A DNA stretch of 64,000 nucleotides from Candidatus Thorarchaeota archaeon (GCA_019057475.1 DXJO01000008.1:32001-96000), one strand, 5' to 3'; shown: positions 1,177 to 21,586, counted from the stretch's first letter. The notes: generated by a model from the letters alone, not told the origin. Numbers and translations are program-made.

Positions 1177-2289
1177 TTAATACTCAAGATGGAGAAGGTC
1201 ACCAGAATACGCATACTTCTCAAGAAGTCTTCTTGCCATACGTTCTGTTTCGCCTATGTTATAGCTAGTTTCGATATAGAGTTCATTAGTTAGCCTTTGT
1301 GGGCCTCTGAATTTCTCACCATTTTGATGGACTGGTTTGGTGTTTACCAAATATCGTATTTGACCTGTGGTTACTCTCACGGGGCAGTCCCTTTTAGTAA
1401 GATGGCCTCTTTTGATGAGCCACTCTGCAGTACAAGTAAGTATTCTATGCACACGCCCCCCTTCGAACTTTTCAGAATCAACTCGAATGATCTTTGGAGG
1501 GTTGCTTGATTTCGGTGTTTTTCTTCTGCCAGATGACATCCTTTGAGTTTCTTCCGTCATAGGCTGCATCCTTGCAAACAATGGAGTGCCTTTGTAGCGC
1601 TTAAGAAGAAAATGCTTGGTTTCCTCAACTTGAATATCAAGATCTTGAAATGACATCTTCACCTCATCTTGTAGGATTCTAGATGCTGCGAGAACCTGCC
1701 TTTCTTCATCAGCAATCAATGCCTGCCAAGTGGAATGGATTGCGCCTTGCTTCCTCTTCGTTAATTCGATCTGCCTTTCTAAATGCTCAATACTCTCACT
1801 ACGTATCTGCATCATTTTCTCAGCGCATTCTTCAGGATTCATGTCTATAAGGCTAATACTCCAAATAGGATCTCTAGACCATCCCTGAAACCTGTACAGA
1901 TTCCAGCACGCACCATCGGTCGTTATACCAAGATTGATGTCAAGGGCAATCAAATAGTCAGCCAATTGCATGGTTGCATTGGAATCAATGTCAACTCTTT
2001 CTCCAAGGCGTTTTACTTCAAATGCAAGGAGATTTGTTTTCCCCTTACTGAGAGTTATGTCAATCTCACCTTTTGAATTCTTCAGCTTCACTTCAATCTC
2101 TTTCATAGAGATGTATGGTGGAGAATTCCATCCAAGTTTGTGTAGAAGGGGAATGACGAGATTATCTCTTACATTATCCTCTCGTTTTTTGCCTTTTCTG
2201 AAATCATTGGGGCGCTGCTTGATCAACTCTCTGATTTTCCTAATCTCACCAACAAGTTCTGCTTTCAAGTTTCGGGATCTCCTAAACAA
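1177..2289 (-). CDS. HsdR N-terminal-like restriction endonuclease domain protein with a separate C-terminal putative DNA-binding domain
   Basis: REDNVRDNLVIPLLHKLGW...EIDITL...FEVKR...QLADY...GITTDGACWNLY matches the HSDR_N PD-(D/E)xK pattern. No helicase motifs follow. Confidence 0.8.
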   Translation of the reverse strand: MFRRSRNLKAELVGEIRKIRELIKQRPNDFRKGKKREDNVRDNLVIPLLHKLGWNSPPYISMKEIEVKLKNSKGEIDITLSKGKTNLLAFEVKRLGERVDIDSNATMQLADYLIALDINLGITTDGACWNLYRFQGWSRDPIWSISLIDMNPEECAEKMMQIRSESIEHLERQIELTKRKQGAIHSTWQALIADEERQVLAASRILQDEVKMSFQDLDIQVEETKHFLLKRYKGTPLFARMQPMTEETQRMSSGRRKTPKSSNPPKIIRVDSEKFEGGRVHRILTCTAEWLIKRGHLTKRDCPVRVTTGQIRYLVNTKPVHQNGEKFRGPQRLTNELYIETSYNIGETERMARRLLEKYAYSGDLLHLEY

Positions 2290-2356
2290 TGAATTCCCAA
2301 ATACGCACTAATCAGTTCAAATAGATATGTCTTATTCTTATTCAAATTTCCTTGGA

Positions 2357-2452
2357 GCGGGAACGGCCTAGGACCATCAAGGAGAATTGCATCAGACATG
2401 GAAAAAGTGTTTCCACAAGATGGACATTCTGCAACAAGCCTTGGAGATTTCA
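2357..2452 (-). pseudogene. Fragment of a second allele of the 5' part of the 4368-4850 nuclease gene
   Basis: 96 bp aligns without gaps to 4724-4819: LKSPRLVAECPSCGNTFSMSDAILLDGPRPFP vs MKSPELVAECPSCGDTFSMSDAVLFDGTKPFP. Confidence 0.85.
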
Positions 2453-2798
2453 GTTCTATCTCTTGATGTTGGCGGCAACCACGGTCATTACACTGGTCGC
2501 TGTAGCGTGTATCGAGGACTAATATCGAGAATCTCAGTACGGCTGCCAGAAAGACAAATATGCCGCCTAGGACTACGTTGACGGAGAGGTTAGAGGACAG
2601 TGAGCGAAGTCCCAATGTCTGGCGGTCTCGAAATTCCCGAACTGCCGAAGGAAAAGCGTCCTTGTTTCAGAAACCCGATTGTCTGTGTGGCGCTTATTAT
2701 CATTGTACCTATTGGAGGTAAGAGATGAAAAATGCCAGAGAGAAAACGCGCTTATCATGGTTTTGTTATCCCATCAAGGGTTTATGTGGGTGAGAAAA

Positions 2799-3836
2799 AT
2801 GTCATATGACGGCAGCGGTTTGACTCCCTTATTCCATGCAGAGATCTCTTCTTCACATCTTTTGTATGACATTTTCGATAAGCATAAAGCTGTTACTGCA
2901 GCTTTTATCAAAGAGTATTATGGTTTGGAGGCGGATATTCTTCTGGTAATCAGGGAGAAGTTTTATCCGAAGAAAGGCTCAATAGACTTGTTCATAACGT
3001 TCAATGCCAACGACCGCAGGTGTGCCCTTCTAATTGAAGCCAAAGTTCACGACTATTCAAGCGTAACAGATTATCAGATCAGCACTTATTATCAGGCGGT
3101 TTCAGAAGACCAAAGCTATGATGAACTCTACTTCATTTACCTGACCCAATTCAATGAAAAAACGAATTTCGATGAAACTGTGCCACCGAAGAGCCTGGTT
3201 GAAGCGGCCAGAGGTAGGGAGTTGATTGGAGAACGTTTTCTTCATCTGACCTGGGTAGATGTGCATGCGTTTCTAGAGAAACATCGAGCCAAGCTCAGCA
3301 AGGAACAGCAGCTAATGGTTGATTTGCATAGAAGTTGGATTGTAGACAAAGGGAGGACCGATTTGGCTACGAATGTAGTTGAAACAGGTGAAAGAAGCTT
3401 GGAAGATTATCTGGGTGATGTGTCGGTAGCTCTTACAGTGCTTGAACCTCTGAGGAAGAAAGTACCGAAAAAAGGGGGGCTTAGGTTGCGCATCGATTTG
3501 ACTGGATTGGATGATGCAAAACGCGATGCCGTGCTTAAGGTAATTCGCGATCTTGCCAATTCGGAATCTGTGAACCGAAAAAAGCAATTTCGGACTGATG
3601 AACTTACCCGGCAGGCTGCGGCTGATTTTTTGTCGGAAATGGCGGTCAAGTATGAATGGGATCTTCTAAGATTTTACACTGGTTTGTTTCATTTCGCTTA
3701 TGAAACGAGCTTTCTGCGGTTGTATGGAAAAGGAACCAGGGGTTTTTCAATCAAGCTGGAAGTGATTGACAAGGGCGAGATCAGCCTCTGCACGCTTTGG
3801 AGGAATAAGCTTGTTGAGTTTATGTTGAGAAGGTAA
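2799..3836 (+). CDS. PD-(D/E)xK nuclease superfamily protein
   Basis: REKFYPKKGSIDLFI...LLIEAKV...YQISTYY...YFIYLT motif series. Start moved to ATG 2799 after a GGGTGA RBS (ORF track starts at 2679). Confidence 0.75.
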   Translation: MSYDGSGLTPLFHAEISSSHLLYDIFDKHKAVTAAFIKEYYGLEADILLVIREKFYPKKGSIDLFITFNANDRRCALLIEAKVHDYSSVTDYQISTYYQAVSEDQSYDELYFIYLTQFNEKTNFDETVPPKSLVEAARGRELIGERFLHLTWVDVHAFLEKHRAKLSKEQQLMVDLHRSWIVDKGRTDLATNVVETGERSLEDYLGDVSVALTVLEPLRKKVPKKGGLRLRIDLTGLDDAKRDAVLKVIRDLANSESVNRKKQFRTDELTRQAAADFLSEMAVKYEWDLLRFYTGLFHFAYETSFLRLYGKGTRGFSIKLEVIDKGEISLCTLWRNKLVEFMLRR

Positions 3837-3855
3837 GTATTGACCTCTTCGAGTA

Positions 3856-4365
3856 CTATCCTAGGTCAATCTCCCCCGCGGACGAAACCCGAGCCAATTG
3901 CCAGTCATAGTCCCCTCTTTCAATTGTCTTCCTGATAGATTGACGGAGTTTCCCATAACCCGGCAGTTTCGACTGGTTGGAAAGCATCACAATCTTGTCA
4001 ATACGGTCTTTCCTCGCCATTCCGGAAAACACCACACAATCCACAGGGTAAAGGAGTGCCTTGATATCTTTCGGATGATAGCTACATCCCGGGAAAGTTT
4101 CCTTGATGACCTTGCGAACCTTTCTTGCGGCAAGTCTTCGGCCCTTTTCTCTTGAAGCTTCTCTGATTTCAGACTCCTTGTCCTTGAAAGATTCCAACCT
4201 CTTATCAAACAAATCTACTCGGTGTTCGTATTCGTCAAGCCACGTTCGTGGAGTTTCTCCCTCATAGTGAAGAGTTAGATCACTAAGACGAACAATGTCG
4301 CCACAACAAGGACAGAGGCAAAGGATCGTTCGCCCATACTGGAATAGCTGAACAGGCTTAACCAC
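3856..4365 (-). CDS. Holliday-junction-resolvase-like (Endonuc_Holl) paralogue, catalytic ExK apparently lost
   Basis: N-terminal CPCCG knuckle, coiled segment, then DIKALLYPVDCVVFSG, but MLSNQS where the neighbouring gene has FLEIKTG. Confidence 0.7.
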   Translation of the reverse strand: MVKPVQLFQYGRTILCLCPCCGDIVRLSDLTLHYEGETPRTWLDEYEHRVDLFDKRLESFKDKESEIREASREKGRRLAARKVRKVIKETFPGCSYHPKDIKALLYPVDCVVFSGMARKDRIDKIVMLSNQSKLPGYGKLRQSIRKTIERGDYDWQLARVSSAGEIDLG

Positions 4366-4367
4366 TG

Positions 4368-4850
4368 TCAGACCTCCTCAAAGAAGACCCTCTCCCGGTC
4401 TATTGCCTCGAATACCATCTTCTGGTGCCGATTTGCACGAGCTTGTCCAGTCTTAATCTCCAAGAAGGTAATCGAATCAACTTTGGATTGCGTCAAACCT
4501 TTGAAGATAATAACGTCAATCGGGTCGAATAGGGCACGGCAGTCAGCAGTTTCATAGCTGAATCCTTCGAGCACGGGGACAATGTGCTCAATCATCTGTC
4601 CGATGTTCACCGCTTCCGCTGTCTTAGCAGCCCTTTTAGTAGCCCTGTCCTTCTTCTTTTTCAAGTCATCATGAGAATCTATTAGATCTTGCTCACGCTC
4701 ATCTCTTCTACCTTCAGCTTCGGGCGGGAACGGTTTTGTCCCATCAAAGAGAACCGCATCAGACATAGAAAAAGTGTCTCCACAAGATGGACATTCTGCA
4801 ACGAGCTCTGGAGATTTCATCGAACGAATTAGGCGCTCCATTTTACACAT
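4368..4850 (-). CDS. Holliday-junction-resolvase-like endonuclease (Endonuc_Holl type)
   Basis: CPSCG knuckle; GQMIEHIVP...DCRALFDPIDVIIFKG...FLEIKTG...HQK. Confidence 0.8.
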   Translation of the reverse strand: MCKMERLIRSMKSPELVAECPSCGDTFSMSDAVLFDGTKPFPPEAEGRRDEREQDLIDSHDDLKKKKDRATKRAAKTAEAVNIGQMIEHIVPVLEGFSYETADCRALFDPIDVIIFKGLTQSKVDSITFLEIKTGQARANRHQKMVFEAIDRERVFFEEV

Positions 4851-8301: not shown

Positions 8302-8937
8302 CTATTCTTGTGAATGGTCCAGAAATGTCACTACTTTATCAAGCAGATAGCATGGTGTCTTACTCAGCGACTTGCTGATATTCCCCTTTGAAGTCTTTAC
8401 AGCTTCCGCAATCTCGGAAATTCGTTTTTTCTCCCAAATGTAATAAAAGCAATGTCGCAATTGTGCTGGACTTAGACCCAAAAGAGTCGTGAGAAAGAGG
8501 ATAGAATTGATCACAGCATTGGTTTCATTGCTTGAGGTCTTCTTGTCAAGTTTAAAACCTACAAGGCTTTTCATGTATTTTGCCCGTTTTATCTCATCTA
8601 TGGCTTGTCTTGCATTCCAGAAGACCGGTCCATCACACTCATCTGCGCTCTCATTGTGGACTATGACCTTTCCTGTCCCAAGTCCAACTCGCAAGTCAAA
8701 GTTCTCCATTAGAAGACTATGAAAGACAAATATAATTGGAAGCCAATTGGTGACCAGCAGCTCGACACTATCGCCTTGGGTGAGAGTGGGGATGGCTGGA
8801 CAGTATTCTTTGAAGCGATCATATGCTTTGAGCAACAGATTCCGTATCTCTCTATCCATTTTTTTCCTATCGCGAGCAGTGACCTCTCTTGATGCCACGA
8901 TGTCAATAACGGCAGCAATCATTGCCAACTCACCCAA
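8302..8937 (-). CDS. SatD family protein with C-terminal HTH
   Basis: AVIDIVASR, TLTQGDSVE, LRVGLGTG, DGPVFWNARQAI, then ISEIAEAVKTSKGNISKSL. Confidence 0.75.
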   Translation of the reverse strand: MGELAMIAAVIDIVASREVTARDRKKMDREIRNLLLKAYDRFKEYCPAIPTLTQGDSVELLVTNWLPIIFVFHSLLMENFDLRVGLGTGKVIVHNESADECDGPVFWNARQAIDEIKRAKYMKSLVGFKLDKKTSSNETNAVINSILFLTTLLGLSPAQLRHCFYYIWEKKRISEIAEAVKTSKGNISKSLSKTPCYLLDKVVTFLDHSQE

Positions 8938-9421
8938 TTAGCAGAAATCTGAAGATTCCCCATGTCAACGCCAGAGCCATGCCAATGCTCATGAGCGTGC
9001 CTAGAATATACCAGTCGGCACAGGCACGATCATTTGTTTCCTTGCTCGAATACCGGAAAATCGCTTTTCCAGCAACAATAACCGAGAGAAAGCTAAGAAT
9101 TGACGCATATGATAACGCACTGTCATAGTAAGTGATCATAAGGGACAGAAAGACCAAACTCCTCTCTGTATATCCAATGAGATAGCCTCCGGATGGCAAG
9201 CCGCCGCAGAGAATCCCAATGTCATCCTCACTCCCTTCTCCAAGCTGTGCAAAAACCAAATCAATAAGCAAGCCTGGCAAGAATAGGGTCAATAGGTAGC
9301 CAAAGAGAATTGTGAAGAACTGAACATACAAAGTGGGTATTGGAACGACCTGTATTAGATACAGAGCAATGATGCTGGTCAGTATTATTAGCAGCCCGAG
9401 AATTCTTAGAAGCCTCTTCAT
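8930..9421 (-). CDS. Membrane protein coupled to SatD (DUF3307/SatE-like)
   Basis: GGYLIGYTER, AGKAIFRY, WYILGTLMS motifs; about 4-5 TM segments; 8-bp overlap with the SatD gene. Confidence 0.65.
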   Translation of the reverse strand: MKRLLRILGLLIILTSIIALYLIQVVPIPTLYVQFFTILFGYLLTLFLPGLLIDLVFAQLGEGSEDDIGILCGGLPSGGYLIGYTERSLVFLSLMITYYDSALSYASILSFLSVIVAGKAIFRYSSKETNDRACADWYILGTLMSIGMALALTWGIFRFLLIG

Positions 9422-11188: not shown

Positions 11189-11440
11189 TTATGACAGCTT
11201 ATCTAGCTCTGAAGCCATCTCATTATGGTCGTAAGCCCATCCACAGATACTTGGATCGAAGAGCCTCTCATAGTCGAAGGGGACAATCCGTGTAGTAGTA
11301 ACTAAGTGCATCGACTTGAAGCAGTCAAAGAAATAGAGCTTCTCAACATCTGATTCAGCTAATGAGGACTCGTCAGAGTGTGCAAGGTGGTGACACCAGG
11401 CAGGGGTGGAATACAGGAGTTTCTTGCAGTTGAGGTTCAC
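11189..11440 (-). CDS. Hypothetical protein or gene remnant
   Basis: 83-aa ORF filling the gap between two plus-strand genes; no motif recognised. Confidence 0.25.
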   Translation of the reverse strand: MNLNCKKLLYSTPAWCHHLAHSDESSLAESDVEKLYFFDCFKSMHLVTTTRIVPFDYERLFDPSICGWAYDHNEMASELDKLS

Positions 11441-11532
11441 TCACCATCATATGTAGGAAATGGGTTGTTCTCAAGCCTTATCTACGGGGATATATGCCGT
11501 CATATCCACCCAATGAACAGGAGAACCAGCAT

Positions 11533-12312
11533 TTGCAGACAATTTGCCTCATGAATGACGATGGCCCGCAAAGTGCAGGTCTGCTGCAGCTAGCGGACGC
11601 CTTGGCCGACTTCGCGAACCTGACTGTGATTGTCCCTGATGGCCAGCGCAGCGGAACCGGGAAGGCTCTGACGTTGGACCGACCAATTAGGATTACAGAG
11701 AGCACTGATTCCGATAACTACAAGCTCATTGTCCATGATGGGCTTCCAGCAGACTCTGTCATAATCGCCCTATCCATGATTGAGAATGTGGATCTGTTCG
11801 TTTCCGGGATAAATGCCGGAGCCAATCTCGGCTATCATCGAATGCTGACTAGTGGAACGGTCGGAGCGGTGTTCGAGGCCGCTCTTCAGGGATATCCTGC
11901 GGTTGCAGTCTCCATGGTTGTTAGCCCGGAATACTGGTTCGCTAACATGAAGAATGACATTGACTTGGAGCAGACTTGCACCATCACAAAAGGTATCATT
12001 GAACGAGTGCTCGATAAGGGCCTACCCCGGGGGATAAGTGCACTGAACGTCAATTTTCCCGCGAAACTGCTCAAGGAGAGCAGGCTGGTTGTTTCAGAGC
12101 CCACTACAGTTGCAGTTTCGAATCGCTTGGAAGAGAGAACCGATCCTTACGGTAGCTCGTACTACTGGATTTGTGGCGGTGAGGTTGAGTCACAAGTTTC
12201 TGGCGATGCCCTTGAGGTCATGGAGCGCGGCAACATCTCAATCTCACCCATTGTGATTGAGGGCGTCAGGAAAGAAGACATGGAGCACCTACGTCAGTTC
12301 TTGGAGGACTGA
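11533..12312 (+). CDS. surE: 5'/3'-nucleotidase SurE
   Basis: NDDG, QRSGTG, DGLPADSV, SGINAGANLG, SGTVGAVFEA, LNVNFP. Start (TTG 11533) is approximate. Confidence 0.92.
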   Translation: MQTICLMNDDGPQSAGLLQLADALADFANLTVIVPDGQRSGTGKALTLDRPIRITESTDSDNYKLIVHDGLPADSVIIALSMIENVDLFVSGINAGANLGYHRMLTSGTVGAVFEAALQGYPAVAVSMVVSPEYWFANMKNDIDLEQTCTITKGIIERVLDKGLPRGISALNVNFPAKLLKESRLVVSEPTTVAVSNRLEERTDPYGSSYYWICGGEVESQVSGDALEVMERGNISISPIVIEGVRKEDMEHLRQFLED

Positions 12313-12376
12313 AAGGTGACCTTTTATGCGACCTGACCAATCGTCCATCACATCACTTGTGTGAGAGGTCTGTGCG

Positions 12377-13894
12377 GTGGTAGAGCTTACATTCTATGGC
12401 GGAGTGAACGAGATTGGTGGAAACAAGATCCTGTTGAAGGATCAGGACACACGGATATTCCTCGACTTCGGAAAGAGCTTTCAGATTCAAAAAAAGTATT
12501 TCGACAGTTTTCTGAACCCGCGAAAGCTGAACATGATTGACGAGCTGGTGAGTTTTGGTCAAATCCCCAGAATCAAAGGGCTCTATCGTGAGGACTACTT
12601 GAAACACGTTGACCCTAACCATTCTCTCCTCAGCGGTGGAAATGAACCGCCTACCGATGCTGTACTAATAACTCACTCCCACCAAGACCATATCGGGATG
12701 ATCCCATGGCTTCGACCAGACATACATCTTCTTGGGTCGGAAACTACAAAGAACATACTGCAATACTGGCAGGTCACCACTAGTGGCGATGGGAGCGAGT
12801 ATCTTGATTGGTATCCTTCATTCCAGACAAAACCTAGGAAGACCAAGCCCAAGAAGGGACAATCCTCATTCATCCGGGTCAGAACAAAGGCGAAATATCT
12901 GAAGGATGAGAAGAGGACACGCGAGTTCACATGTCTATCACCCCAAAAAACGGTTCAAGTCGGTGACGTAGAGGTCGAGTCATATCCGGTTGACCATAGT
13001 CTACCTGGAGCATATGCCTACATCGTTAAGACAAGCTCAGGAAACATAGGATACACGGGAGACCTACGGTTTCATGGTCATGCCCCGGAGCTGTCAAATC
13101 GGTTTGTCAAGGCCCTTGAGGACACAGACATCAAGGTGCTACTCTGTGAAGGCACAAGGGCGGAAGATAAGAAGAGCTTTGGAGAATCGAAGCTGAAAGA
13201 GAAACTGGCCACTGCTTTTGCTTCGACAAAGGGCCTCATCCTTGTCAACTACCCCGCTCGTGATGTCAGCCGAGTCTCCACCATGTGCAGAGCGGCCGCA
13301 GAATCTGGAAGAACTCTGCTCGTGAGTCCGAAGCAAGCATACTATTTCAGTGTCATTGCAGGCGAAAAGGACTTGCCCGTTCCTTCTGATGATGACTTCC
13401 GTGTTCTATTGCCTCGAAAGGATTGGGGAATCTGGGGCAATCAGAGATTCGATGAACTTCTGTGGGCGCAAGACTACAGATATCCCGACCCAGTGGAGAA
13501 AATTATCTTCGAGGGGTCTGACTTACTAACACCCTCAGACGTAGTAAAATCGCCATCTGAATACGTCGTCACATGCAGTTTCTTCGAGTTTGGCCTTCTG
13601 CACGACCTGAATCCCCAATCAGATACATCCTACATCTGGTCACGTTCAGAACCGTTTGATGAAGAAGGCCAGATTGAGTATGATAGAGTATTGAACTGGC
13701 TGTCGCATTTCGGAATAGACGAGCCTGTCACGATGCACTGCTCCGGACACTTGGCTGGGTCAGAAATCCAAGACCTAATCGAGAGAGCGCAGCCAGAGAT
13801 TGTTGTCCCAATTCATACTGAACGACCTGATCTATTCACTGACTGGCACAAGGACGTGAGAATCCTCGAGCAGAATGACACGCTGTCGCTTTAG
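12377..13894 (+). CDS. RNase J-like metallo-beta-lactamase-fold hydrolase
   Basis: YGGVNEIGGNK, FLDFG, THSHQDH, VDHSLPGA, YTGDLRFHG, CEGT, HCSGH, PIHTE. Confidence 0.85.
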   Translation: MVELTFYGGVNEIGGNKILLKDQDTRIFLDFGKSFQIQKKYFDSFLNPRKLNMIDELVSFGQIPRIKGLYREDYLKHVDPNHSLLSGGNEPPTDAVLITHSHQDHIGMIPWLRPDIHLLGSETTKNILQYWQVTTSGDGSEYLDWYPSFQTKPRKTKPKKGQSSFIRVRTKAKYLKDEKRTREFTCLSPQKTVQVGDVEVESYPVDHSLPGAYAYIVKTSSGNIGYTGDLRFHGHAPELSNRFVKALEDTDIKVLLCEGTRAEDKKSFGESKLKEKLATAFASTKGLILVNYPARDVSRVSTMCRAAAESGRTLLVSPKQAYYFSVIAGEKDLPVPSDDDFRVLLPRKDWGIWGNQRFDELLWAQDYRYPDPVEKIIFEGSDLLTPSDVVKSPSEYVVTCSFFEFGLLHDLNPQSDTSYIWSRSEPFDEEGQIEYDRVLNWLSHFGIDEPVTMHCSGHLAGSEIQDLIERAQPEIVVPIHTERPDLFTDWHKDVRILEQNDTLSL

Positions 13895-13970
13895 TATGAA
13901 GATGACCTTACGCGATTCCAGGTGAGAACAGAATGCGCGACCCGGACGAATGCACAGGGAGGTTCGAGCC

Positions 13971-15560
13971 ATGAGCAATAGCCAGGCATACATTACACTG
14001 ATGGGGCGCAGCGGATGGGCTGTCGTCAACTCGTTCCATGCGTCTGTGATTGAAACTGATTATCGGCCAGAGGAAGTCATCCTTCTCTACGAGGCTCAGT
14101 ACACCGACGGGATCAAGCCAGTTGTGGAGGGCTTAGAAATAGTACAGGGGACATACTCCACTCCAAACGTCGTACAAGTTGAGGTTCCCACCTCGGATGC
14201 GCATGCCGCTGGCCAAGTGGCACTGGATCTTGTGCGACAGCTGAAGACGAAAGGCTCCAAAGTTGCGCTAGATATCACAGGCGGACGAAAGGCGCTTGTG
14301 GCTGGCAGTCTACTCGCTCTGAAAGACCAAGGTCTTGACCATGTCTACTATCTTGCAATCGAAACAGTTGAGGGAGTAGCTAAGCCCTATCTGATGATTC
14401 CAAAAAGAATCCAGAAACTCATTGACCTAGTCACAAATGAAGTCCAGAGCGCTACTGTTGAATTCGAGTCCGAGAGCAAGCTCACCGATGTGCTCTTGTC
14501 AAGGGATTGTGTCATGATTGTTCTCAATCAGGCCTACAGGCGCGGCGAGCCGATCAGAGTGAAGGCACCATTGATTGGTGTCGACCTTCTCGAACTGAAC
14601 CTTCGGGATGGTAAAGTCACGATGCTGACAGACTCGATGGACTACGGTGAGAAGCGCGACACTAGTGGCTATCGCGGATGGGATCATCCGACCTACTCGG
14701 ACCTCCGAAGATGCCTGTGCTTCTGTGGTCTCGTAGACTATCAGAACAGAGATAGATTTGACAATCTATTGACGAAGAAACTCTGCAAGTCCCGCGACCT
14801 CACTAGTGGAGCACGAAAATCCGTTCTCTCGCTTGACTCAAATATGTACTACAATGGATTTCCCTCCTACTTGGAGAAACTGGAAATACAGTTTGGTATA
14901 CCACCGAAAGATGTAGTCTGCATTACTCCCTTCCCAGTTGTGAAGGAGATTCAGAATAAAATCAAATGGAAATACAAGTTGCAAGAAATCCGTGACGCGC
15001 AGAACCACTATGATTCTTACCAGCTGGGCTCCATAATTGATGAGTTCATTGGTCAGAATACTCTCGAAACAAGGGTTGCCAAGATGGCCAAGTCCGAACT
15101 GACCAAATTCATGAGAAGGCCAACACACGAGAAGACGCGCCGAGTAGATCTCCCCAAGGACAAGGAAGATGTTGACCATCTGATCGTCGATGAACTGGAG
15201 AAATTTGCTGATGAACGTGGTGTGAGCGTGAATCTTGTATCCGCGGACAAGAACATGCACGATTTCTGTGAGTTGGCCCGAGATGTAGGCGTGCAGATTC
15301 TTGTGCTTCCTAGTAAGATACCCCGGACCATGGAGGTGACAGACAGAACTTTCGTTAACCTTCTAGTTGGCCTGTCATTGCTGTACGGGGTTGTGGAGCT
15401 TGAGAAGATCGGGTACCTGTTCGGTGAGTACAGAGGGAAAAGGTCCGAGGTGTACACAGATGAGGTTAAGCTTCGTTTCAGAAATTCACACCGTGCGAGG
15501 ATAGTTGAGGAACGGACTGAAACATGCATGAAACTTAAGCAGCTTGACATAATCAGGTAG
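13971..15560 (+). CDS. CARF domain fused to a PIN-domain ribonuclease
   Basis: N-terminal YITLMGRSGWAVVNS...LDITGGRK...HVYYL (CARF). C-terminal LSLDSNMYY, VKEI, VDHLIV, VSADKNM (four PIN acidic positions). GGAGG precedes ATG 13971. Confidence 0.75.
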   Translation: MSNSQAYITLMGRSGWAVVNSFHASVIETDYRPEEVILLYEAQYTDGIKPVVEGLEIVQGTYSTPNVVQVEVPTSDAHAAGQVALDLVRQLKTKGSKVALDITGGRKALVAGSLLALKDQGLDHVYYLAIETVEGVAKPYLMIPKRIQKLIDLVTNEVQSATVEFESESKLTDVLLSRDCVMIVLNQAYRRGEPIRVKAPLIGVDLLELNLRDGKVTMLTDSMDYGEKRDTSGYRGWDHPTYSDLRRCLCFCGLVDYQNRDRFDNLLTKKLCKSRDLTSGARKSVLSLDSNMYYNGFPSYLEKLEIQFGIPPKDVVCITPFPVVKEIQNKIKWKYKLQEIRDAQNHYDSYQLGSIIDEFIGQNTLETRVAKMAKSELTKFMRRPTHEKTRRVDLPKDKEDVDHLIVDELEKFADERGVSVNLVSADKNMHDFCELARDVGVQILVLPSKIPRTMEVTDRTFVNLLVGLSLLYGVVELEKIGYLFGEYRGKRSEVYTDEVKLRFRNSHRARIVEERTETCMKLKQLDIIR

Positions 15561-15786: not shown

Positions 15787-18700
15787 TTATTGAGATGCCT
15801 GTTTCTTAGCCCGAAATTGGGCGAAGAGGAAGCCAATAGCAATTCCACCAACGATACCAATTCCAAGTAGACTCACTATTACAATTAATGAGTCAGAAGT
15901 TATCGGTTCGTAATGAGATGGTGGACTTGGATACACAATCACATTGGAGTCAGACATTCCTGGCCAGATGAACCTATCAAATTCCAAATAGAATTGTAAA
16001 GATGTGTTCCATGGAATGACGAAACAAAATGTTGCATTGTCAATGGTGGAATATGGCTGTACAAATATCCAAGTACTACTATTTTCAGCTCTCCAAACCA
16101 GAACCATTTCGCTTTCCAACACTGGTTCTATCGAAACAATAACTTCCAATGTGTTGTTCCATTCATGTGGGATCAGAATGAGTTTAGGTGAGCTAAATAC
16201 TACGACTTCGATATCAGACCTAGTCGCTGGGCAATTTGATGCATCAGTTTCAAGAGTAAGAACATACTTACCTGAATTCCAAAATGTGATGTTCCACGTC
16301 TTAGTCTTCATCGATTCAGGACTAATGTCTCCCCATTCTACGATTGGATCTGGGGAAATCTCAACTCCTTGCGGAACTAGAAGTGTGGATACCACATCTT
16401 CGGCATATGCTGATCCTCGTGAATCAAGATTGAGCTGCAAGTTTGTGGACTCACCTACCATGAAAGTGGTGTGAGCGATTGACAACGAAGATTCCACCAC
16501 AACATCCACTATCCGAATCTCTAGGTCTACTACGACCATATAGTCATCACCTGAAAAGACCGTCAGATGATACCAACCCACTTCACCCGGCACAGGGTCA
16601 GTTAGATGTACTTCCAGCCCCACATGTGTCACTTCTCCAGGGACAATTAGATTACTCAGATTGAGCACCCATCCAGGATTGCCCCACACATACCCCCACA
16701 CAAGATGATCTACGGAAACTGTTTCAATAGGATGTTGCCCATAACAGTTGATATACAAATCAATCGTGACCGGGTTTCCGGGCAATACATGAACGACTGA
16801 TTCCTTCACACTAGCAGATAGTCTTCCTGGATTAACACCTATTTTCAGTGTCGCGTTGTAAATTGGACAGTTTGTACCTGTCGCATGGATTGCAATCTCA
16901 AAATTTCCTGACTGTAACGCTTGGACCAACCATGCATAGTTCTTTGGTTGGTTAGGAGCCAAATTTCCTAGATTGGACAACTGGTATGGATTGCTATCCA
17001 CGATTTCTATATTATTCGGCAATGAAATGCTCACATTCAAGTTGGCAATCTCTGTACCTCCCAGTTCACAGAAGAACTGCACTCCAACTGGAAAAGTTTC
17101 GCCAACAGCAATTGTGTAATCAATCTGCTGAGGGACTACTCTGATTCTTGGCATTGGTTCTTCAGGGCCCAACATTAGATATGCGATTGAGTCAGCGAAG
17201 AACTCGTCAGCTGTATGAAAGAATCCATCAATGTTAGAAGTCGTGTCGAGATATATAGCTGAAGTTGTATCAAGGTACCTGACACGATAAGTATTCAATC
17301 GGGATGGAACTGCTCCACCCCAATAGTTCTCAGAGATAGGCACACTAATTATTCGCTGTTCAGCCTCGTTGATTATGCCGCATATCACTTCATCGAATGA
17401 ATTTTTCCCAATACCAATAATCATCTCCCTTGTGTCATCACTCGATATCCCCTCTTGTAACCCTCTGCTATGAGCAAAGGCAGCAACCAGCTTATCTAGA
17501 AAGAGTTCTTCTGTGCTACTCAAACCACAATAGAACACCTGTCCCGCCATGGGGTTGGATTGGTTTTGGTAAATGAACATCGAATATTGACCATCAGTAT
17601 CTTCTTCCGGGAAAGATGTGTCTAGCAATGTGAAATCCTCTGTCAACGTGAAATTCACAGCAGTACGCAAGACACCTTCTTCTGATTCAACATGAAGGTC
17701 AAACGCGTTGGGTCTATCCAGATAGAGTCTTTCTCCATCGTGATACGCTTGATAGGTGACATCAAAGGTCTCATACTCCAAGAGGTTCTTACGTAGGTGT
17801 CCAGTTTCATTTTCCAATGAGCCACTTGTTGACCCGAGAAGTACTAGGTTTCCGCCACTTGCGACATACTCGTTTAACTCAGCTACTAAGTTCTCCCAAA
17901 GAAGGACTTGGTGGTCTACAACCACGAGGTCGTAGTCACTAAGATTAACACTCCCTGATATCACGAGGCGTTGGTTGGTGATGTCCCATGAAGTAAGTCC
18001 AGCACCCTTAGTTGTAGCAAATCCTCGTTCTGCACCTATCACTAGTATCGGGGGACTGCAATCAATAGGTCTAAGATTCTTTCCTTCCTCATACAATTGG
18101 GAGATAAAATCGTAGTACTGTGCCTCAAGATTCTGATCAGTTGACCCGCTTTGTGCAATGTTTTCCCATCCCTGATTAAAGAATGAAATCATATCTGCTC
18201 CGGCGAAGTATGATAACCAAAAGCTCTTTTCTAGGTCATCAGGCGAGGTATATCCTCCTAAAAGATATGGATAGCCAAAAAGCCCAGCCTCAACAGGGGT
18301 TTCAGGTGCATAAGTTTTGTAGAATCGAATGGTTGAGTATGCGTGCATCGGAACAGAAGAGAAAGATTGCGCATAGATCCTATCACTCTTCCATAGTCCT
18401 GGCTCATTTCCCACCCATGGTATGGTACTCCAAAGGACCTCTCTCGATGGATTAATGCCCTTCACATAGTCGTAAATCGTGTTCATCGCACTGGCAGTGC
18501 GGTTACAAATCCACTCATGGAACCAGAAGAGTTCTGTACGATTCATCTCAAAGATGCTCTTGAACCAGAAGCCAGTCTCAGAATGGTAAGTAGAATTATA
18601 CTTGGTTAAGTGCAAAGGCCATGTATTACTTCCGAAGGAGAACCAATCATAAGCTCCACTGGCTGGTTCTTCATCACCCAATATCACACTGTCCATATGC

Positions 18701-19194
18701 TCAGACCATGAGTGATTCTCTATGTCATTGCCTAATATTGCAAGCTGTTCTGCTCTAAAGCTTGTATTATAGTAACTGTCCAGAGGGGAGTTGCCGTAGC
18801 GCCAGGGCCAGAATACGCCTCCCAAACTTACTCCTCGATCATGAAGCCAACGGAATTGGAAAATGGAGTTATGAGCTCCATACGAAGTATACTCAGCTGC
18901 AGACGGTCCCCAGATTACAAGGTCTGATACGTAGTTGGGTAGCTCTTCCCAGCGATGTCTAAGCTGACTTGCCCAGCAAGCAAAAGATGTTCTAAGGAAT
19001 TGGTCAGGATTATTGCCGTCTGCCAGTGAATCCAGAGCTCTCATTTTAGGGAATTGCTCTGTACCCATTCTCAAGTCTACAGATTCAGCCAAATCAGTCC
19101 GGACATTCTGCTCTGGGCTACAGGAGGGCTTAGTGGTGAGGAAGAGTATGATTGCAAGTGTTATGACCAGAATAACTCTGAACTGACGCTGCAT
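15787..19194 (-). CDS. Large secreted, membrane-anchored putative glycoside hydrolase-like protein with Ig-like repeats
   Basis: Signal peptide; GDEEP motif; class-I-GAT-like segment LSDYDLVVV...LNEYVASGGNLVLLG; Ig-like modules; C-terminal TM. Confidence 0.6.
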   Translation of the reverse strand: MQRQFRVILVITLAIILFLTTKPSCSPEQNVRTDLAESVDLRMGTEQFPKMRALDSLADGNNPDQFLRTSFACWASQLRHRWEELPNYVSDLVIWGPSAAEYTSYGAHNSIFQFRWLHDRGVSLGGVFWPWRYGNSPLDSYYNTSFRAEQLAILGNDIENHSWSEHMDSVILGDEEPASGAYDWFSFGSNTWPLHLTKYNSTYHSETGFWFKSIFEMNRTELFWFHEWICNRTASAMNTIYDYVKGINPSREVLWSTIPWVGNEPGLWKSDRIYAQSFSSVPMHAYSTIRFYKTYAPETPVEAGLFGYPYLLGGYTSPDDLEKSFWLSYFAGADMISFFNQGWENIAQSGSTDQNLEAQYYDFISQLYEEGKNLRPIDCSPPILVIGAERGFATTKGAGLTSWDITNQRLVISGSVNLSDYDLVVVDHQVLLWENLVAELNEYVASGGNLVLLGSTSGSLENETGHLRKNLLEYETFDVTYQAYHDGERLYLDRPNAFDLHVESEEGVLRTAVNFTLTEDFTLLDTSFPEEDTDGQYSMFIYQNQSNPMAGQVFYCGLSSTEELFLDKLVAAFAHSRGLQEGISSDDTREMIIGIGKNSFDEVICGIINEAEQRIISVPISENYWGGAVPSRLNTYRVRYLDTTSAIYLDTTSNIDGFFHTADEFFADSIAYLMLGPEEPMPRIRVVPQQIDYTIAVGETFPVGVQFFCELGGTEIANLNVSISLPNNIEIVDSNPYQLSNLGNLAPNQPKNYAWLVQALQSGNFEIAIHATGTNCPIYNATLKIGVNPGRLSASVKESVVHVLPGNPVTIDLYINCYGQHPIETVSVDHLVWGYVWGNPGWVLNLSNLIVPGEVTHVGLEVHLTDPVPGEVGWYHLTVFSGDDYMVVVDLEIRIVDVVVESSLSIAHTTFMVGESTNLQLNLDSRGSAYAEDVVSTLLVPQGVEISPDPIVEWGDISPESMKTKTWNITFWNSGKYVLTLETDASNCPATRSDIEVVVFSSPKLILIPHEWNNTLEVIVSIEPVLESEMVLVWRAENSSTWIFVQPYSTIDNATFCFVIPWNTSLQFYLEFDRFIWPGMSDSNVIVYPSPPSHYEPITSDSLIVIVSLLGIGIVGGIAIGFLFAQFRAKKQASQ

Positions 19195-19306
19195 GTATTA
19201 TCATACGCGTAATCTTTTGATATACTCTTGCAGAAAACAATTCCCCGCTACTGAGGTCTGCGAAGTCTTAAATTCATCAGAATGCTATACTAAAAGGGGT
19301 TCAAGG

Positions 19307-21586
19307 TTGCGGAGATTTGCTCTTGCTCTATTCTTGGTTGTTGTCATAGCTTCTATGCCGGTTGCAGTAGTGCAGGCTATTCCCACATGGCAAGGTGGCG
19401 AGCCGGGTGTTCGGTGGTATATCTTAATGGGATATGACCCCACTCATTTTGCAACCAGCACTATTTTGCGGCAAGATGTGAGAGCACTCCACCAGTTCGC
19501 GGAGAGAGGTGTTAAGATTGGTGTTGGAGTGGGTATATGGGATGCATTTCCCAGTGAGAGTATACTTGACATATACTACGATGAGTCATGTCTGAGAAGA
19601 CTAGAGCGTCTTATAGATACAGTCTTCGAAGTGGATCCTGGACAGGGACCTGGAGTGAACCCAGAGAGAGTGTGGAGTATGACTCTCGGTGGGGAAGAAC
19701 CATACTGGCCAGCAGGTTACCCTGGTGAGAATCCGATATTCTTCCGTTTCAACGAAACATACCATACTGAGGTGGGATTCTGGTTCAAGCCTTTCGACGA
19801 CATGAATGCTACAGAGAGAATGGTTTTAGTGGAATGGACGAACGAGAAAGGAAATTGGGTTTTCAATCATATGTACGACTATGTCAAGGCAAAGTGGCCT
19901 CACATAGTGGTGTTCCAGTCCTTTTTCCCACCACACCCGATGAACTTTGGTGCAGTTATATTTGAGTTGAAAGCGGATGCTCTATCAATAGATGCCTACC
20001 TAGCTGGAGAGCGTGACAATCCTTGGTTAATCTACAATCCCCATCGGTGGTATACTACATTTGCCCCGGACAAAGAGTTTCACATGGTGCTTTGGGGGCA
20101 AGAAGCAGATGCGCCTCCATGGCTCTTCGAGGGAGAGCTTGGAGGATTTGAGCACATCAGGCGCAATGCTTGGGTTTCCTATCTTGCTGGAGCAAATGCA
20201 CTTGCATGGTTCGATTGGCACCCCTTATACGGGAATGGTTGGCTGAGGACTGATACAATGGGCAAAAGACTGTTCCTGTATGTGAACAGAATTGCTAATG
20301 AGTTACACAAACTGCCACTCTTCAGGGCAAGACCGAAAGTCCTCGTAATTGGTACAGATAATGAGTTCACTGGTCCAGAGGTTGGATGGCCCACTGAGCT
20401 TGGACTATTCACCGAGTATGATATAATGGATCATAGATACTTTGCAAAAGAGGAAGTCGACCTATCACAATATGAACTAGTGATTCATGGTGCCATAACA
20501 CGACGCGAAGAGTTCGTCGAAAAACTCAATGACTATGTGAGTGCTGGTGGTAATGTCGTTTTTTTGGGTGGCATTGGAAGTCGGCTGAATATCTATGAGA
20601 ATGCTACACGTGAAACACTAATTTCCATTGAAGAAGATTCAACAGAATACTGGATTGGAGAACACGTCAATATCAGCATTTCACTCCCGAATCTACTTGG
20701 ACTAGAACTAGAGTATGATGCTCACGATTTCGAGGGAAAAAAGCTCAAGACCCTTAATCTGACTGGAGACTACCATCCGGTTGGCGAATTCCACAGAATC
20801 TTGCCTGATAACAGCACAATACCAGTTGATGGATATCCTCTATTACTATATCATAACTCGTCACAACCAAACTCGGGATGGATTCTCTATTGGGGGATGC
20901 TTAAGGCTTCAGATAATGCAAAGTTCAACTGGATGAACAAGAACGATACGGCTCTTGTGAGGTTTCTAATACATGAAGTGGTCCAATCTTATGCGGTGAA
21001 CTTCCTAAACATGAATGGGTCGGTTTCGACTCCTGATACGGAACAGATGCTAATTACCCAATCGATGGTGGAGGAAGGGACAATCTTAGCGGCTCTCTCA
21101 AACTTCATGGTTGATTCATGGGAACAATACATGCCAGTGGACAAGGATGTGAATTACACTCTGGACTTAGAGCAATTCGACTTACCTGATGGAGAATACT
21201 GGGTTCATTCAGTGGACAAGAATCAATCGCTTGGTAGCTTCACATCAGACAATGCATTACTTGAGATTCCAGTTCATGTGGCTGCGAACGACACACGCCT
21301 CCTTCTAATATCCCAAGATAGACCACAACCGAATTACACTATCAACATTTTTCCACCTGTTCCTACACCTGAAGAAGTGGAACCCGCCACGTTGCTCTCT
21401 GAAGATACAGAAATCGTCAAATCTCCTTACACACGTCCTGTGGCTGGTGAAGCGGATCTATCAGATGCCGCAGTCAATAATCCAGTAATTGATGCCTTAA
21501 GGAACCCCGGTGTCGTCGTACTTATCGCCACTTTCTTGCTAGTTCAGCAACATTACCGTAAGAAACGGTTGGGAGTGGGGCGATGA
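19307..21586 (+). CDS. Secreted putative glycoside hydrolase-like protein, paralogue of 15787-19194
   Basis: Shares GGEEP, NETYHTEVGFWFK, MYDYVK, SYLAGA and LNDYVSAGGNVVFLG with the divergent neighbour. Signal peptide follows TTG 19307. Confidence 0.6.
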   Translation: MRRFALALFLVVVIASMPVAVVQAIPTWQGGEPGVRWYILMGYDPTHFATSTILRQDVRALHQFAERGVKIGVGVGIWDAFPSESILDIYYDESCLRRLERLIDTVFEVDPGQGPGVNPERVWSMTLGGEEPYWPAGYPGENPIFFRFNETYHTEVGFWFKPFDDMNATERMVLVEWTNEKGNWVFNHMYDYVKAKWPHIVVFQSFFPPHPMNFGAVIFELKADALSIDAYLAGERDNPWLIYNPHRWYTTFAPDKEFHMVLWGQEADAPPWLFEGELGGFEHIRRNAWVSYLAGANALAWFDWHPLYGNGWLRTDTMGKRLFLYVNRIANELHKLPLFRARPKVLVIGTDNEFTGPEVGWPTELGLFTEYDIMDHRYFAKEEVDLSQYELVIHGAITRREEFVEKLNDYVSAGGNVVFLGGIGSRLNIYENATRETLISIEEDSTEYWIGEHVNISISLPNLLGLELEYDAHDFEGKKLKTLNLTGDYHPVGEFHRILPDNSTIPVDGYPLLLYHNSSQPNSGWILYWGMLKASDNAKFNWMNKNDTALVRFLIHEVVQSYAVNFLNMNGSVSTPDTEQMLITQSMVEEGTILAALSNFMVDSWEQYMPVDKDVNYTLDLEQFDLPDGEYWVHSVDKNQSLGSFTSDNALLEIPVHVAANDTRLLLISQDRPQPNYTINIFPPVPTPEEVEPATLLSEDTEIVKSPYTRPVAGEADLSDAAVNNPVIDALRNPGVVVLIATFLLVQQHYRKKRLGVGR

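Follow-up and report, generated by a model that had tools for sequence, protein, structure and literature searches.

To our knowledge, CARF domains, that of RtcR apart, are understood almost entirely as receivers of cyclic oligoadenylates made by Cas10. In Csm6/Csx1 and Can2/Card1, ancillary nucleases of type III CRISPR that cyclic oligoadenylates activate, a CARF sensor is fused to a promiscuous nuclease, and some Csm6 proteins limit their own activity by degrading the ligand in the CARF pocket; the Crn1 ring nucleases (Sso2081, Sis0455, Sis0811) are stand-alone CARF proteins, with or without a winged helix-turn-helix (wHTH) domain, that only degrade cyclic tetra-adenylate (cA4); and in RtcR-RtcAB a CARF sensor outside CRISPR is coupled to RNA-end metabolism. 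Fusions of a CARF to a PIN domain were noted in 2014 (PMC4012209), and are catalogued as the CARF_m1 CARF-PIN family (SiRe_0806, PDB 9jxw/9jxx; ST0035 of S. tokodaii; PADLOC PDLC01971, PDLC01973 and PDLC01068). The present analysis concerns a protein of this last kind, encoded in a stretch of 64,000 nucleotides from Candidatus Thorarchaeota archaeon (GCA_019057475.1, DXJO01000008.1:32001-96000), which is called the window in what follows and within which all positions are counted. According to the list of open reading frames and their translations, the gene is the last of three on the plus strand (11494-15560), where it follows those of a SurE nucleotidase and of a beta-CASP nuclease of the metallo-beta-lactamase (MBL) fold.

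Each of the described systems resembles this cassette in some respects and departs from it in others. The SiRe_0806/ST0035 family shares full-length superposition and profile matches with the Thorarchaeota protein, but the latter sits in Cas10-less genomes and within a cassette that also encodes a beta-CASP nuclease and a phosphatase. Crn1 has the same CARF fold (Z 13-15) and, at the same positions, the same motif I (G-x-S) and motif II (G-R-K), whereas the CARF domain here belongs to CARF_m1 rather than to clade CARF7 or CARF_m13 (PMC9638899), and is fused to, or encoded beside, a nuclease effector. With Csm6/Csx1 and Can2/Card1 the logic of sensor and effector is held in common, but there the effectors are of HEPN or PD-(D/E)xK type, lie in cas loci and depend on Cas10, while here the effector is a PIN domain and there is neither a cas locus nor Cas10. 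RtcR, a CARF-AAA+-HTH (helix-turn-helix) transcription activator, controls a ligase and a cyclase, whereas the output here would be a nuclease, an exonuclease and a phosphatase, with no linked Rtc genes. Finally, the MBL protein has in common with RNase J and EF2904-like proteins an MBL, beta-CASP and RMMBL architecture with complete metal-binding motifs; unlike RNase J, in Thorarchaeia it is no housekeeping RNase but an accessory gene product tied to CARF-PIN, and its nearest solved relative, EF2904 (2az4), is uncharacterised.

The best explanation of the cassette is that it is an accessory, horizontally mobile three-gene unit, independent of type III CRISPR. Within the literature searched we have not found a Cas10-independent conserved cassette of this kind, with a phosphatase and a beta-CASP nuclease, described; that search returned no paper describing the cassette or the SiRe_0806/9jxx structure, while the CARF census published in 2020 (Makarova et al., NAR) lay outside its scope and might mention these neighbours. 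The genes had been picked out in an initial annotation, made from the sequence alone, as three co-oriented genes with gaps of 64 and 76 bp, and the list of open reading frames bears this out, the start of 11533 given there being an in-frame TTG. The gap from the SurE to the MBL gene is indeed 64 bp, while that from the MBL to the CARF-PIN gene is 55 bp if measured to the opening of the reading frame at 13950, or 76 bp if measured to Met8 at 13971; the latter is the likely start, as homologues begin there. The domain calls made at the same time (SurE, MBL, CARF with the motif DITGGRK, and PIN) agree with Pfam and TIGR matches, with PADLOC and with the modelled structure.

As regards the CARF-PIN protein itself, 41 close homologues were collected, mostly from Thorarchaeota, and a 21-sequence alignment was used as input for an AlphaFold (AF2) model, which has a pLDDT of 91. 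The best Foldseek matches of this model are to SiRe_0806 from Sulfolobus islandicus in its apo and cA4-bound forms (E 1e-16), and superposition on the cA4-bound form (PDB 9jxx; VIA-align) gives Z 23.3 and rmsd 3.8 over 389/407 residues, covering model residues 11-533. On the strength of this model the protein is a predicted full-length structural homologue of SiRe_0806, even though the two are only 15% identical and the Thorarchaeota protein is about 110 residues longer. The N-terminal domain alone (model residues 10-165) has the Rossmann-like CARF fold and superposes on the solved CARF domains of Can2, Card1, Crn1, Csm6 and Cad1 with Z 13-15.6 and rmsd 2.1-2.9 over 127-145 residues, so that the earlier assignment of this domain as CARF holds at the level of structure. 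Among the profiles, the Pfam model Cas_NE0113 scores 23.1 bits, just at its 23-bit cut-off, while the PADLOC models CARF_m1--CARF (2.5e-41), CARF_m1--CARF_PIN (2e-33, residues 12-514) and CARF_PIN (2.2e-23) all match. These profiles place the protein in the catalogued CARF_m1 CARF-PIN family, which means that the family itself was already known.

The conserved motifs of the CARF ligand pocket come after strand beta1 (motif I) and where helix alpha4 begins (motif II). Here motif I (G19-R20-S21) and motif II (G112-R113-K114, within DITGGRK at residues 108-114) are invariant in the 21 homologues. They align with G9-T10-S11 and G104-R105-K106 of Crn1/Sso2081, which the family profile matches, and in Sso2081 the residues of both motifs bind and cleave cA4 (PMC10018336). 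Judged by this alignment, both of the Crn1 ring-nuclease motifs are retained in the CARF pocket, and invariance across homologues that are 40-90% identical extends to other residues that face the pocket. By likeness to the cA4-bound homologue 9jxx, the CARF dimer is a putative receptor for a cyclic oligoadenylate or some other nucleotide.

The C-terminal part of the protein does not itself match Pfam PIN, but split C-terminal homologues pass PIN_4 (24.0 and 23.5 bits, the cut-off being 21.9), and model residues 279-460, which have the PIN fold of a parallel beta-sheet with helices on its flanks, superpose on 3i8o, a Methanocaldococcus jannaschii domain of unknown function, with Z 12.2 and rmsd 3.2 over 127 residues. 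PIN-like nucleases bind metal through three to four clustered, conserved acidic residues; of the candidates here, D296 and E333 are unchanged in all 21 aligned sequences and D433 is conserved in at least 90% of them, and the three occupy the expected strand or helix positions. Where relatives are split, the middle domain goes with the PIN part in one protein of 330-370 amino acids, which matches query residues 172-528.

The genome holds a second copy of the CARF-PIN gene (G000:C47:11690-13237, minus strand; L111:8691-10238) that is 87% identical over residues 102-536. In this copy unrelated sequence stands in place of the first ~100 CARF residues, motif I among them; the frame is open, and there is neither an MBL nor a SurE gene beside it.

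Turning to the MBL protein, this matches Pfam Lactamase_B_2 and RMMBL (the latter at 24 bits against a cut-off of 21.6), and in a 15-sequence alignment H100, H102, D104 and H105 (the HxHxDH motif), H207, D229, E258, H454 and H480 are all invariant, so that its MBL and beta-CASP metal-binding motifs are all intact. The initial annotation had called it an RNase J-like ribonuclease. The architecture is that of a beta-CASP/MBL enzyme, but the protein reaches only 78.9 bits on the RNase J model TIGR00649 (NCBIfam), against a cut-off of 400, and 77.9 bits against a cut-off of 820 on RNase J1, while its profile is closest to EF2904 (2az4; 2.7e-49, as against 1e-24 to 1e-14 for RNase J, with aCPSF also further off). 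Identity as a true RNase J was rejected on these grounds, and from its profiles the protein is best classed as an RNase J-like, EF2904-like beta-CASP nuclease. PADLOC has no model for either this protein or the SurE protein.

With over 3,500 relatives the MBL family is a large one, and some 7 of 78 of its loci outside Thorarchaeia adjoin a CARF-type gene, namely a CARF-wHTH gene (L009, L037, L049, L068, L081, L091) or a PIN part (L072); by chance, well under one of 78 would be expected, on a rough estimate from the rarity of CARF genes. Cas10 is absent from all three of the genomes checked that have CARF-wHTH beside beta-CASP, so that, given the excess adjacency as well, the beta-CASP clade is repeatedly linked to CARF sensors independently of Cas10. 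Five CARF-wHTH genes (HFX_2341_N + DUF6293_C) directly beside beta-CASP genes, found at L049:5068-5808, L081:5282-5878, L091:7418-8143, L068:2990-3685 and L009:5209-6282, belong to Methanosarcina, Methanobacteriaceae, Methanolobus, Nanoarchaeia and Nitrososphaerota, and in L068 a NurA-HerA pair sits between the CARF-wHTH and beta-CASP genes.

For the third member, SurE, the initial annotation had allowed that it might be only a neighbour. The protein is a clear SurE (Pfam SurE, 4.7e-44; TIGR00087, 181.6 bits against a cut-off of 135.1), but it shares the genome with a housekeeping SurE, encoded at C56, to which it is 54% identical; SurE is present in all Thorarchaeia, and carriers of the cassette hold two copies. 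In a maximum-likelihood tree the cassette-linked sequences (G000, G085, G061, G053) fall together with two unlinked extra copies in one clade (97/100 support), separate from the housekeeping copies, several of which group by genus. This separation indicates that the cassette-linked SurE, hereafter SurE2, is a dedicated paralogue, and the idea of a chance neighbour was rejected on both the second-copy status and the clade; in other phyla, a HAD phosphatase stands in its place. SurE2 is missing from two Thorarchaeia cassette loci, one of which (L005, 1978-3315) is flanked by a TnpB/Cas12f-like gene, while in the other (L024, 2809-4302) the flanking genes encode a DNA methylase and a restriction endonuclease of the MvaI/BcnI type.

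Among 87 Thorarchaeia genomes, CARF-PIN occurs in 12, and in only one of six congeners of the window genome. MBL orthologues (E < 1e-20) were found in exactly the genomes that carry CARF-PIN, roughly 10 of them, with one contig-end fragment in addition, and in Thorarchaeia the MBL gene always lies directly upstream of CARF-PIN, in several loci only 4-7 bp away. No other beta-CASP paralogue was found in these genomes at the same threshold, so that the MBL enzyme must have come with the cassette. Decayed forms of CARF-PIN are also seen, as split copies in G024:C3 and as fragments in G078 and G080. A role in housekeeping RNA processing was rejected, given the low frequency overall and among congeners and the decayed copies. 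Taken together, the patchy spread, the decayed and duplicated copies, the neighbouring TnpB-like, restriction-modification and nuclease-like genes and the repeat at its border (see below) would suit an accessory module for defence or stress.

Conservation of the linkage between MBL and CARF-PIN, which had been proposed as a check, thus proves strict in Thorarchaeia, and it recurs elsewhere: the order MBL-CARF-PIN is common to three Thermoproteota loci, and in ANME-2 the MBL gene lies beside the PIN part. An exhaustive profile search for the CARF-PIN family returned 521 cluster representatives, 75 of them below 1e-30. Fused forms are rare among these, most relatives being split into a CARF protein of 155-170 amino acids and a middle-domain/PIN protein of 330-370, and the separate CARF protein is always paired with a PIN gene. 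Of the 251 Thermoproteota genomes sampled, 20 contain the family, usually in the order CARF-wHTH regulator (HFX_2341_N + DUF6293_C), MBL (in 3 of ~10 loci), CARF, PIN and HAD_2 phosphatase; no MBL gene lies beside those Sulfolobales-like forms of 430 amino acids that were examined. The HAD_2 gene comes directly after the PIN gene in five Thermoproteota and two Methanomicrobia loci, and in Methanomicrobia, where it follows a fused gene, its product is 45% identical to the Thermoproteota HAD. A phosphomonoesterase partner is therefore conserved across three phyla by way of the non-homologous SurE or HAD, and we take this as the strongest evidence that dephosphorylation belongs to the function. 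In other genomes the cassette has TnpB-like and restriction-modification genes at its sides.

The other side of the argument for independence is the CRISPR content of the carriers. The window genome (G000; 3.34 Mb in 56 contigs, 96.4% complete) gave no match to models for Cas10 palm2, Cas1, RAMP, SMODS (CD-NTase), mCpol or GGDEF, all of which match in control genomes, and a k-mer scan of it found no CRISPR array, three candidates having been rejected as ordinary tandem repeats. Nor was any cas gene found in the cassette neighbourhood examined within the window or in 30-odd related loci, and the earlier statement that no cas gene or array is adjacent can accordingly be extended to the genome as a whole. 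Cas10 occurs in 13/87 Thorarchaeia genomes and in 1/9 of the carriers among them, in 0/5 carriers from other phyla and in 1/5 further Thermoproteota carriers, for a total of 2/19; the 17 carriers without it span four phyla and include genomes that are 96-99% complete.

That no cyclase is adjacent, as was also stated at the outset, holds for Cas10 and CD-NTases, neither of which is found in the genome; it has to be qualified by a gene of the SatD family, 2.6 kb upstream, whose modelled product has a palm fold like that of class III nucleotidyl cyclases. The model of this protein (pLDDT 91) has its best matches among class III adenylyl cyclase domains, though they are weak (E ~1e-3, TM ~0.5), and its invariant D12 and D56 belong to motifs (DIV and GDS) similar to those with which class III cyclases bind metal. 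The distance between SatD gene and cassette can be judged in only two co-carrier genomes, in both of which it is 3-7 kb, with differing orientations; it is 6.8 kb in G053, which belongs to another genus. SatD is found in 30/87 genomes overall and in 4/9 carriers, and is absent from one 99%-complete carrier and from the other loci examined. As an obligate partner it was rejected, there being no co-occurrence across the 87 genomes, and it is kept as a lead, rather than as part of the cassette, because it lies within 7 kb in both genomes that can be judged.

What might such a set of enzymes do? Cleavage by PIN nucleases yields 5'-phosphate and 3'-OH ends, beta-CASP enzymes of the RNase J type favour 5'-monophosphate ends and release nucleoside 5'-monophosphates (5'-NMPs), and SurE and HAD-IA nucleotidases convert NMPs to nucleosides and phosphate. 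These three chemistries fit end to end, and for that reason we favour, tentatively and at slightly less than even confidence, a reading of the cassette as a ligand-gated pipeline for RNA demolition, in which the gating, the order of steps and the physiological role are all inferred. A small nucleotide or RNA-end ligand would bind the CARF dimer of CARF_m1-PIN and so turn on the PIN endoribonuclease; the 5'-phosphate fragments left by its cuts would be degraded by the MBL protein, acting as a 5'-3' exonuclease, to 5'-NMPs, from which SurE2, or the HAD phosphatase in other phyla, would remove the phosphate to yield nucleosides. The sensor might then reset itself by destroying its own ligand in the CARF pocket, as the intact ring-nuclease motifs there suggest. 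The outcome could be growth arrest or abortive infection, or else salvage of RNA under stress.

Several points weigh against this pipeline. Enzymes of the SurE and HAD families act on a wide range of substrates, and it is RNase J that serves as the model for the exonuclease polarity and 5'-phosphate preference assumed for the EF2904-like clade. The analysis turned up no source of a CARF ligand. The acidic residues of the PIN domain, described in the initial annotation as intact, are conserved at D296, E333 and D433, but a fourth could not be placed. Outside Thorarchaeia the MBL gene is facultative, being absent from most Thermoproteota, Methanomicrobia and Thermoplasmata loci, and in Thermoplasmata the split pair adjoins aminoacyl-tRNA synthetase genes, with neither MBL nor phosphatase next door. 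Two loci, L113 (G074:C48) and L114 (G076:C4), carry a SurE2-clade gene without MBL or CARF-PIN and without detectable remnants of either nearby, so that the paralogue can exist by itself. Lastly, ST0035, which is the subject of the only published test of a CARF-PIN protein found in the literature searched, was reported to bind cA4 weakly and to show no induced RNase activity (PMC6546367).

A signal-clearing reading, which develops the proposal originally made for this locus, has CARF-PIN as the sole effector, with the MBL enzyme acting as a phosphodiesterase on a (cyclic) oligonucleotide ligand and SurE or HAD stripping the phosphates, the pair forming an off-switch in the manner of the ring nucleases. 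We consider this unlikely, though several observations speak for it: the beta-CASP family adjoins CARF genes far above chance, including PIN-less CARF-wHTH genes (L037, L049, L068, L081, L091), the phosphatase partner is conserved, and the MBL protein has a weak match to a cyclic-nucleotide phosphodiesterase model (E 0.012). However, since the CARF domain already has both ring-nuclease motifs, a separate off-switch would be redundant, and many CARF/PIN cassettes without the MBL gene keep the phosphatase. Moreover, the MBL protein has a beta-CASP insert and an RMMBL motif for RNA specificity, and all characterised beta-CASP enzymes of which we are aware cut RNA or DNA polymers, for which reason a role in RNA degradation is ranked above one in ligand turnover.

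The nature of the ligand raises a different question, as the CARF domain could read 2',3'-cyclic-phosphate RNA ends produced by other RNases, toxins or viruses, much as in RtcR, with PIN and beta-CASP then clearing RNA and the phosphatase acting on 3'-phosphate ends or on nucleotides. SurE does have 3'-nucleotidase activity, HAD enzymes include polynucleotide 3'-phosphatases, and most carriers have no cyclase. There is precedent too, in that the RtcR CARF domain senses tRNA fragments with cyclic-phosphate ends outside CRISPR (PMC7790460), and ring-nuclease motifs position a 2'-OH and a phosphate (PMC10018336). Such a reading nonetheless seems to us distinctly unlikely: the closest solved homologue was crystallised with cA4 and not with an RNA end, the pocket motifs match those of the cA4-cleaving Crn1, whereas PMC7790460 describes the CARF domain of RtcR as divergent, and no linkage to RtcA or RtcB was seen in any locus.

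If the ligand is indeed cA4, the cassette might instead be an orphan accessory of type III CRISPR, that is, a leftover or transferable effector that works only with a Cas10 which the cell acquires at a later time or encodes on an unassembled element. Those members of the family that belong to Sulfolobales come from genomes with type III systems, the S. acidocaldarius control matching both CARF_m1-PIN and Cas10; SiRe_0806 binds cA4, to go by the title of its structure entry (PDB 9jxx); and metagenome-assembled genomes often lose CRISPR arrays and islands. But the two carriers with Cas10 stand against 17 without it, the near-complete genomes among them, and in Thorarchaeia the frequency of Cas10 in carriers is not above background. 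Invariance of the pocket across Cas10-less lineages argues for a ligand that is available there, and the conserved partners that the cassette has of its own include no cas gene, all of which makes this explanation improbable. Still harder to credit, and to our minds very improbable, is the suggestion that there is no ligand at all and that CARF is only a dimerisation scaffold for a constitutive or protein-regulated RNase, such as a toxin restrained by a partner, for while ST0035 showed no cA4-induced RNase activity (PMC6546367) and the truncated second copy in the window genome keeps an open frame without its first ~100 CARF residues, motifs I and II and the other pocket-facing residues are invariant across homologues 40-90% identical, a scaffold explains poorly why most relatives retain a separate CARF protein beside the PIN gene, and no antitoxin-like small gene is conserved.

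The features of the locus are collected in Table 1. The repeat upstream of SurE2 is one of ~10 copies in the genome (78-89% identity; C37:48-130, C2:48-130, three in C21, and others in C34, C38, C42 and C18), of which several lie at contig ends, and there are many more in genomes of the same genus; it is ~90 nt long at the cassette and reaches ~300 nt elsewhere. As it is not a tRNA and has no Rfam match, the idea of a tRNA integration site or of a known RNA at this position was rejected. The repeat, which marks the left border of the cassette, is probably the relic end of a multi-copy element; a miniature inverted-repeat transposable element, an insertion-sequence end or an unknown non-coding RNA are the likely candidates. 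Further upstream, at 1177-4850, is a cluster of nuclease-like genes, whose products are an HSDR_N-like protein of the PD-(D/E)xK type, a second protein that matches PDDEXK_4 and, from tandem genes, two Endonuc_Holl proteins related to Holliday resolvases, which suggests a variable or defence-type region. Downstream, at 15787-21586, are the genes of two large divergent proteins of 1135 and 797 amino acids with only weak Glyco_hydro_42M-like matches, the two genes, which lie on opposite strands, overlapping by 2 bp at their starts (19193/19194).

Table 1 Features of the cassette and its immediate surroundings (positions within the 64,000-nucleotide window).
Feature	Position	Strand	Remarks
SatD-family gene	8302-8937	-	211 amino acids; 2.6 kb upstream of cassette; C-terminal part helical, wHTH-like
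Gene for predicted hydrophobic, probably membrane, protein	8930-9421	-	163 amino acids; overlaps SatD gene in same orientation
Dispersed ~90-nt repeat copy	11376-11466	.	27 bp upstream of SurE2
SurE2, 5'/3'-nucleotidase paralogue	11494-12312	+	272 amino acids; alternative in-frame TTG start at 11533
EF2904-like beta-CASP/MBL-fold nuclease	12377-13894	+	505 amino acids; GTG start
CARF_m1-PIN fusion	13971-15560	+	529 amino acids from likely start at Met8; 536-amino-acid reading frame opens at 13950
CARF domain, ~residues 8-165	13971-14444	+	Motif I 14004-14012; motif II within DITGGRK, 14271-14291
Middle alpha/beta and helical domain, ~residues 166-285	14445-14804	+	Secondary structure from predicted model
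PIN-like nuclease domain with C-terminal beta-hairpin/helix extension	14805-15560	+	D296 14835-14837; E333 14946-14948; D433 15246-15248

The question raised by all this is what a CARF sensor detects when no CRISPR enzyme makes the usual signal. The CARF-PIN family retains a pocket of the ring-nuclease type even though 17/19 of the genomes checked are without Cas10, and does so alongside conserved enzyme partners of its own, which makes the cassette a testable system both for what CARF senses outside CRISPR and for second-messenger control of the degradation of RNA to nucleosides. It also gives a likely context to two enzyme clades for which no role is known, that of the second SurE paralogue and that of the beta-CASP nucleases resembling EF2904, and places such signalling modules in Asgard archaea. 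A broader possibility, which we would hold to be somewhat doubtful, is that this is a CRISPR-independent archaeal CARF pathway responding to an endogenous ligand not made by Cas10, whether a product of RNA decay or the product of an unrecognised cyclase, for instance of the SatD type. If that were so, its conserved core would consist of a phosphatase together with the CARF sensor and the PIN RNase, to which the beta-CASP nuclease and the CARF-wHTH regulator may or may not be added, and Asgard archaea, Thermoproteota and methanogens would have a second-messenger system, new to science, for stress or antiviral responses.

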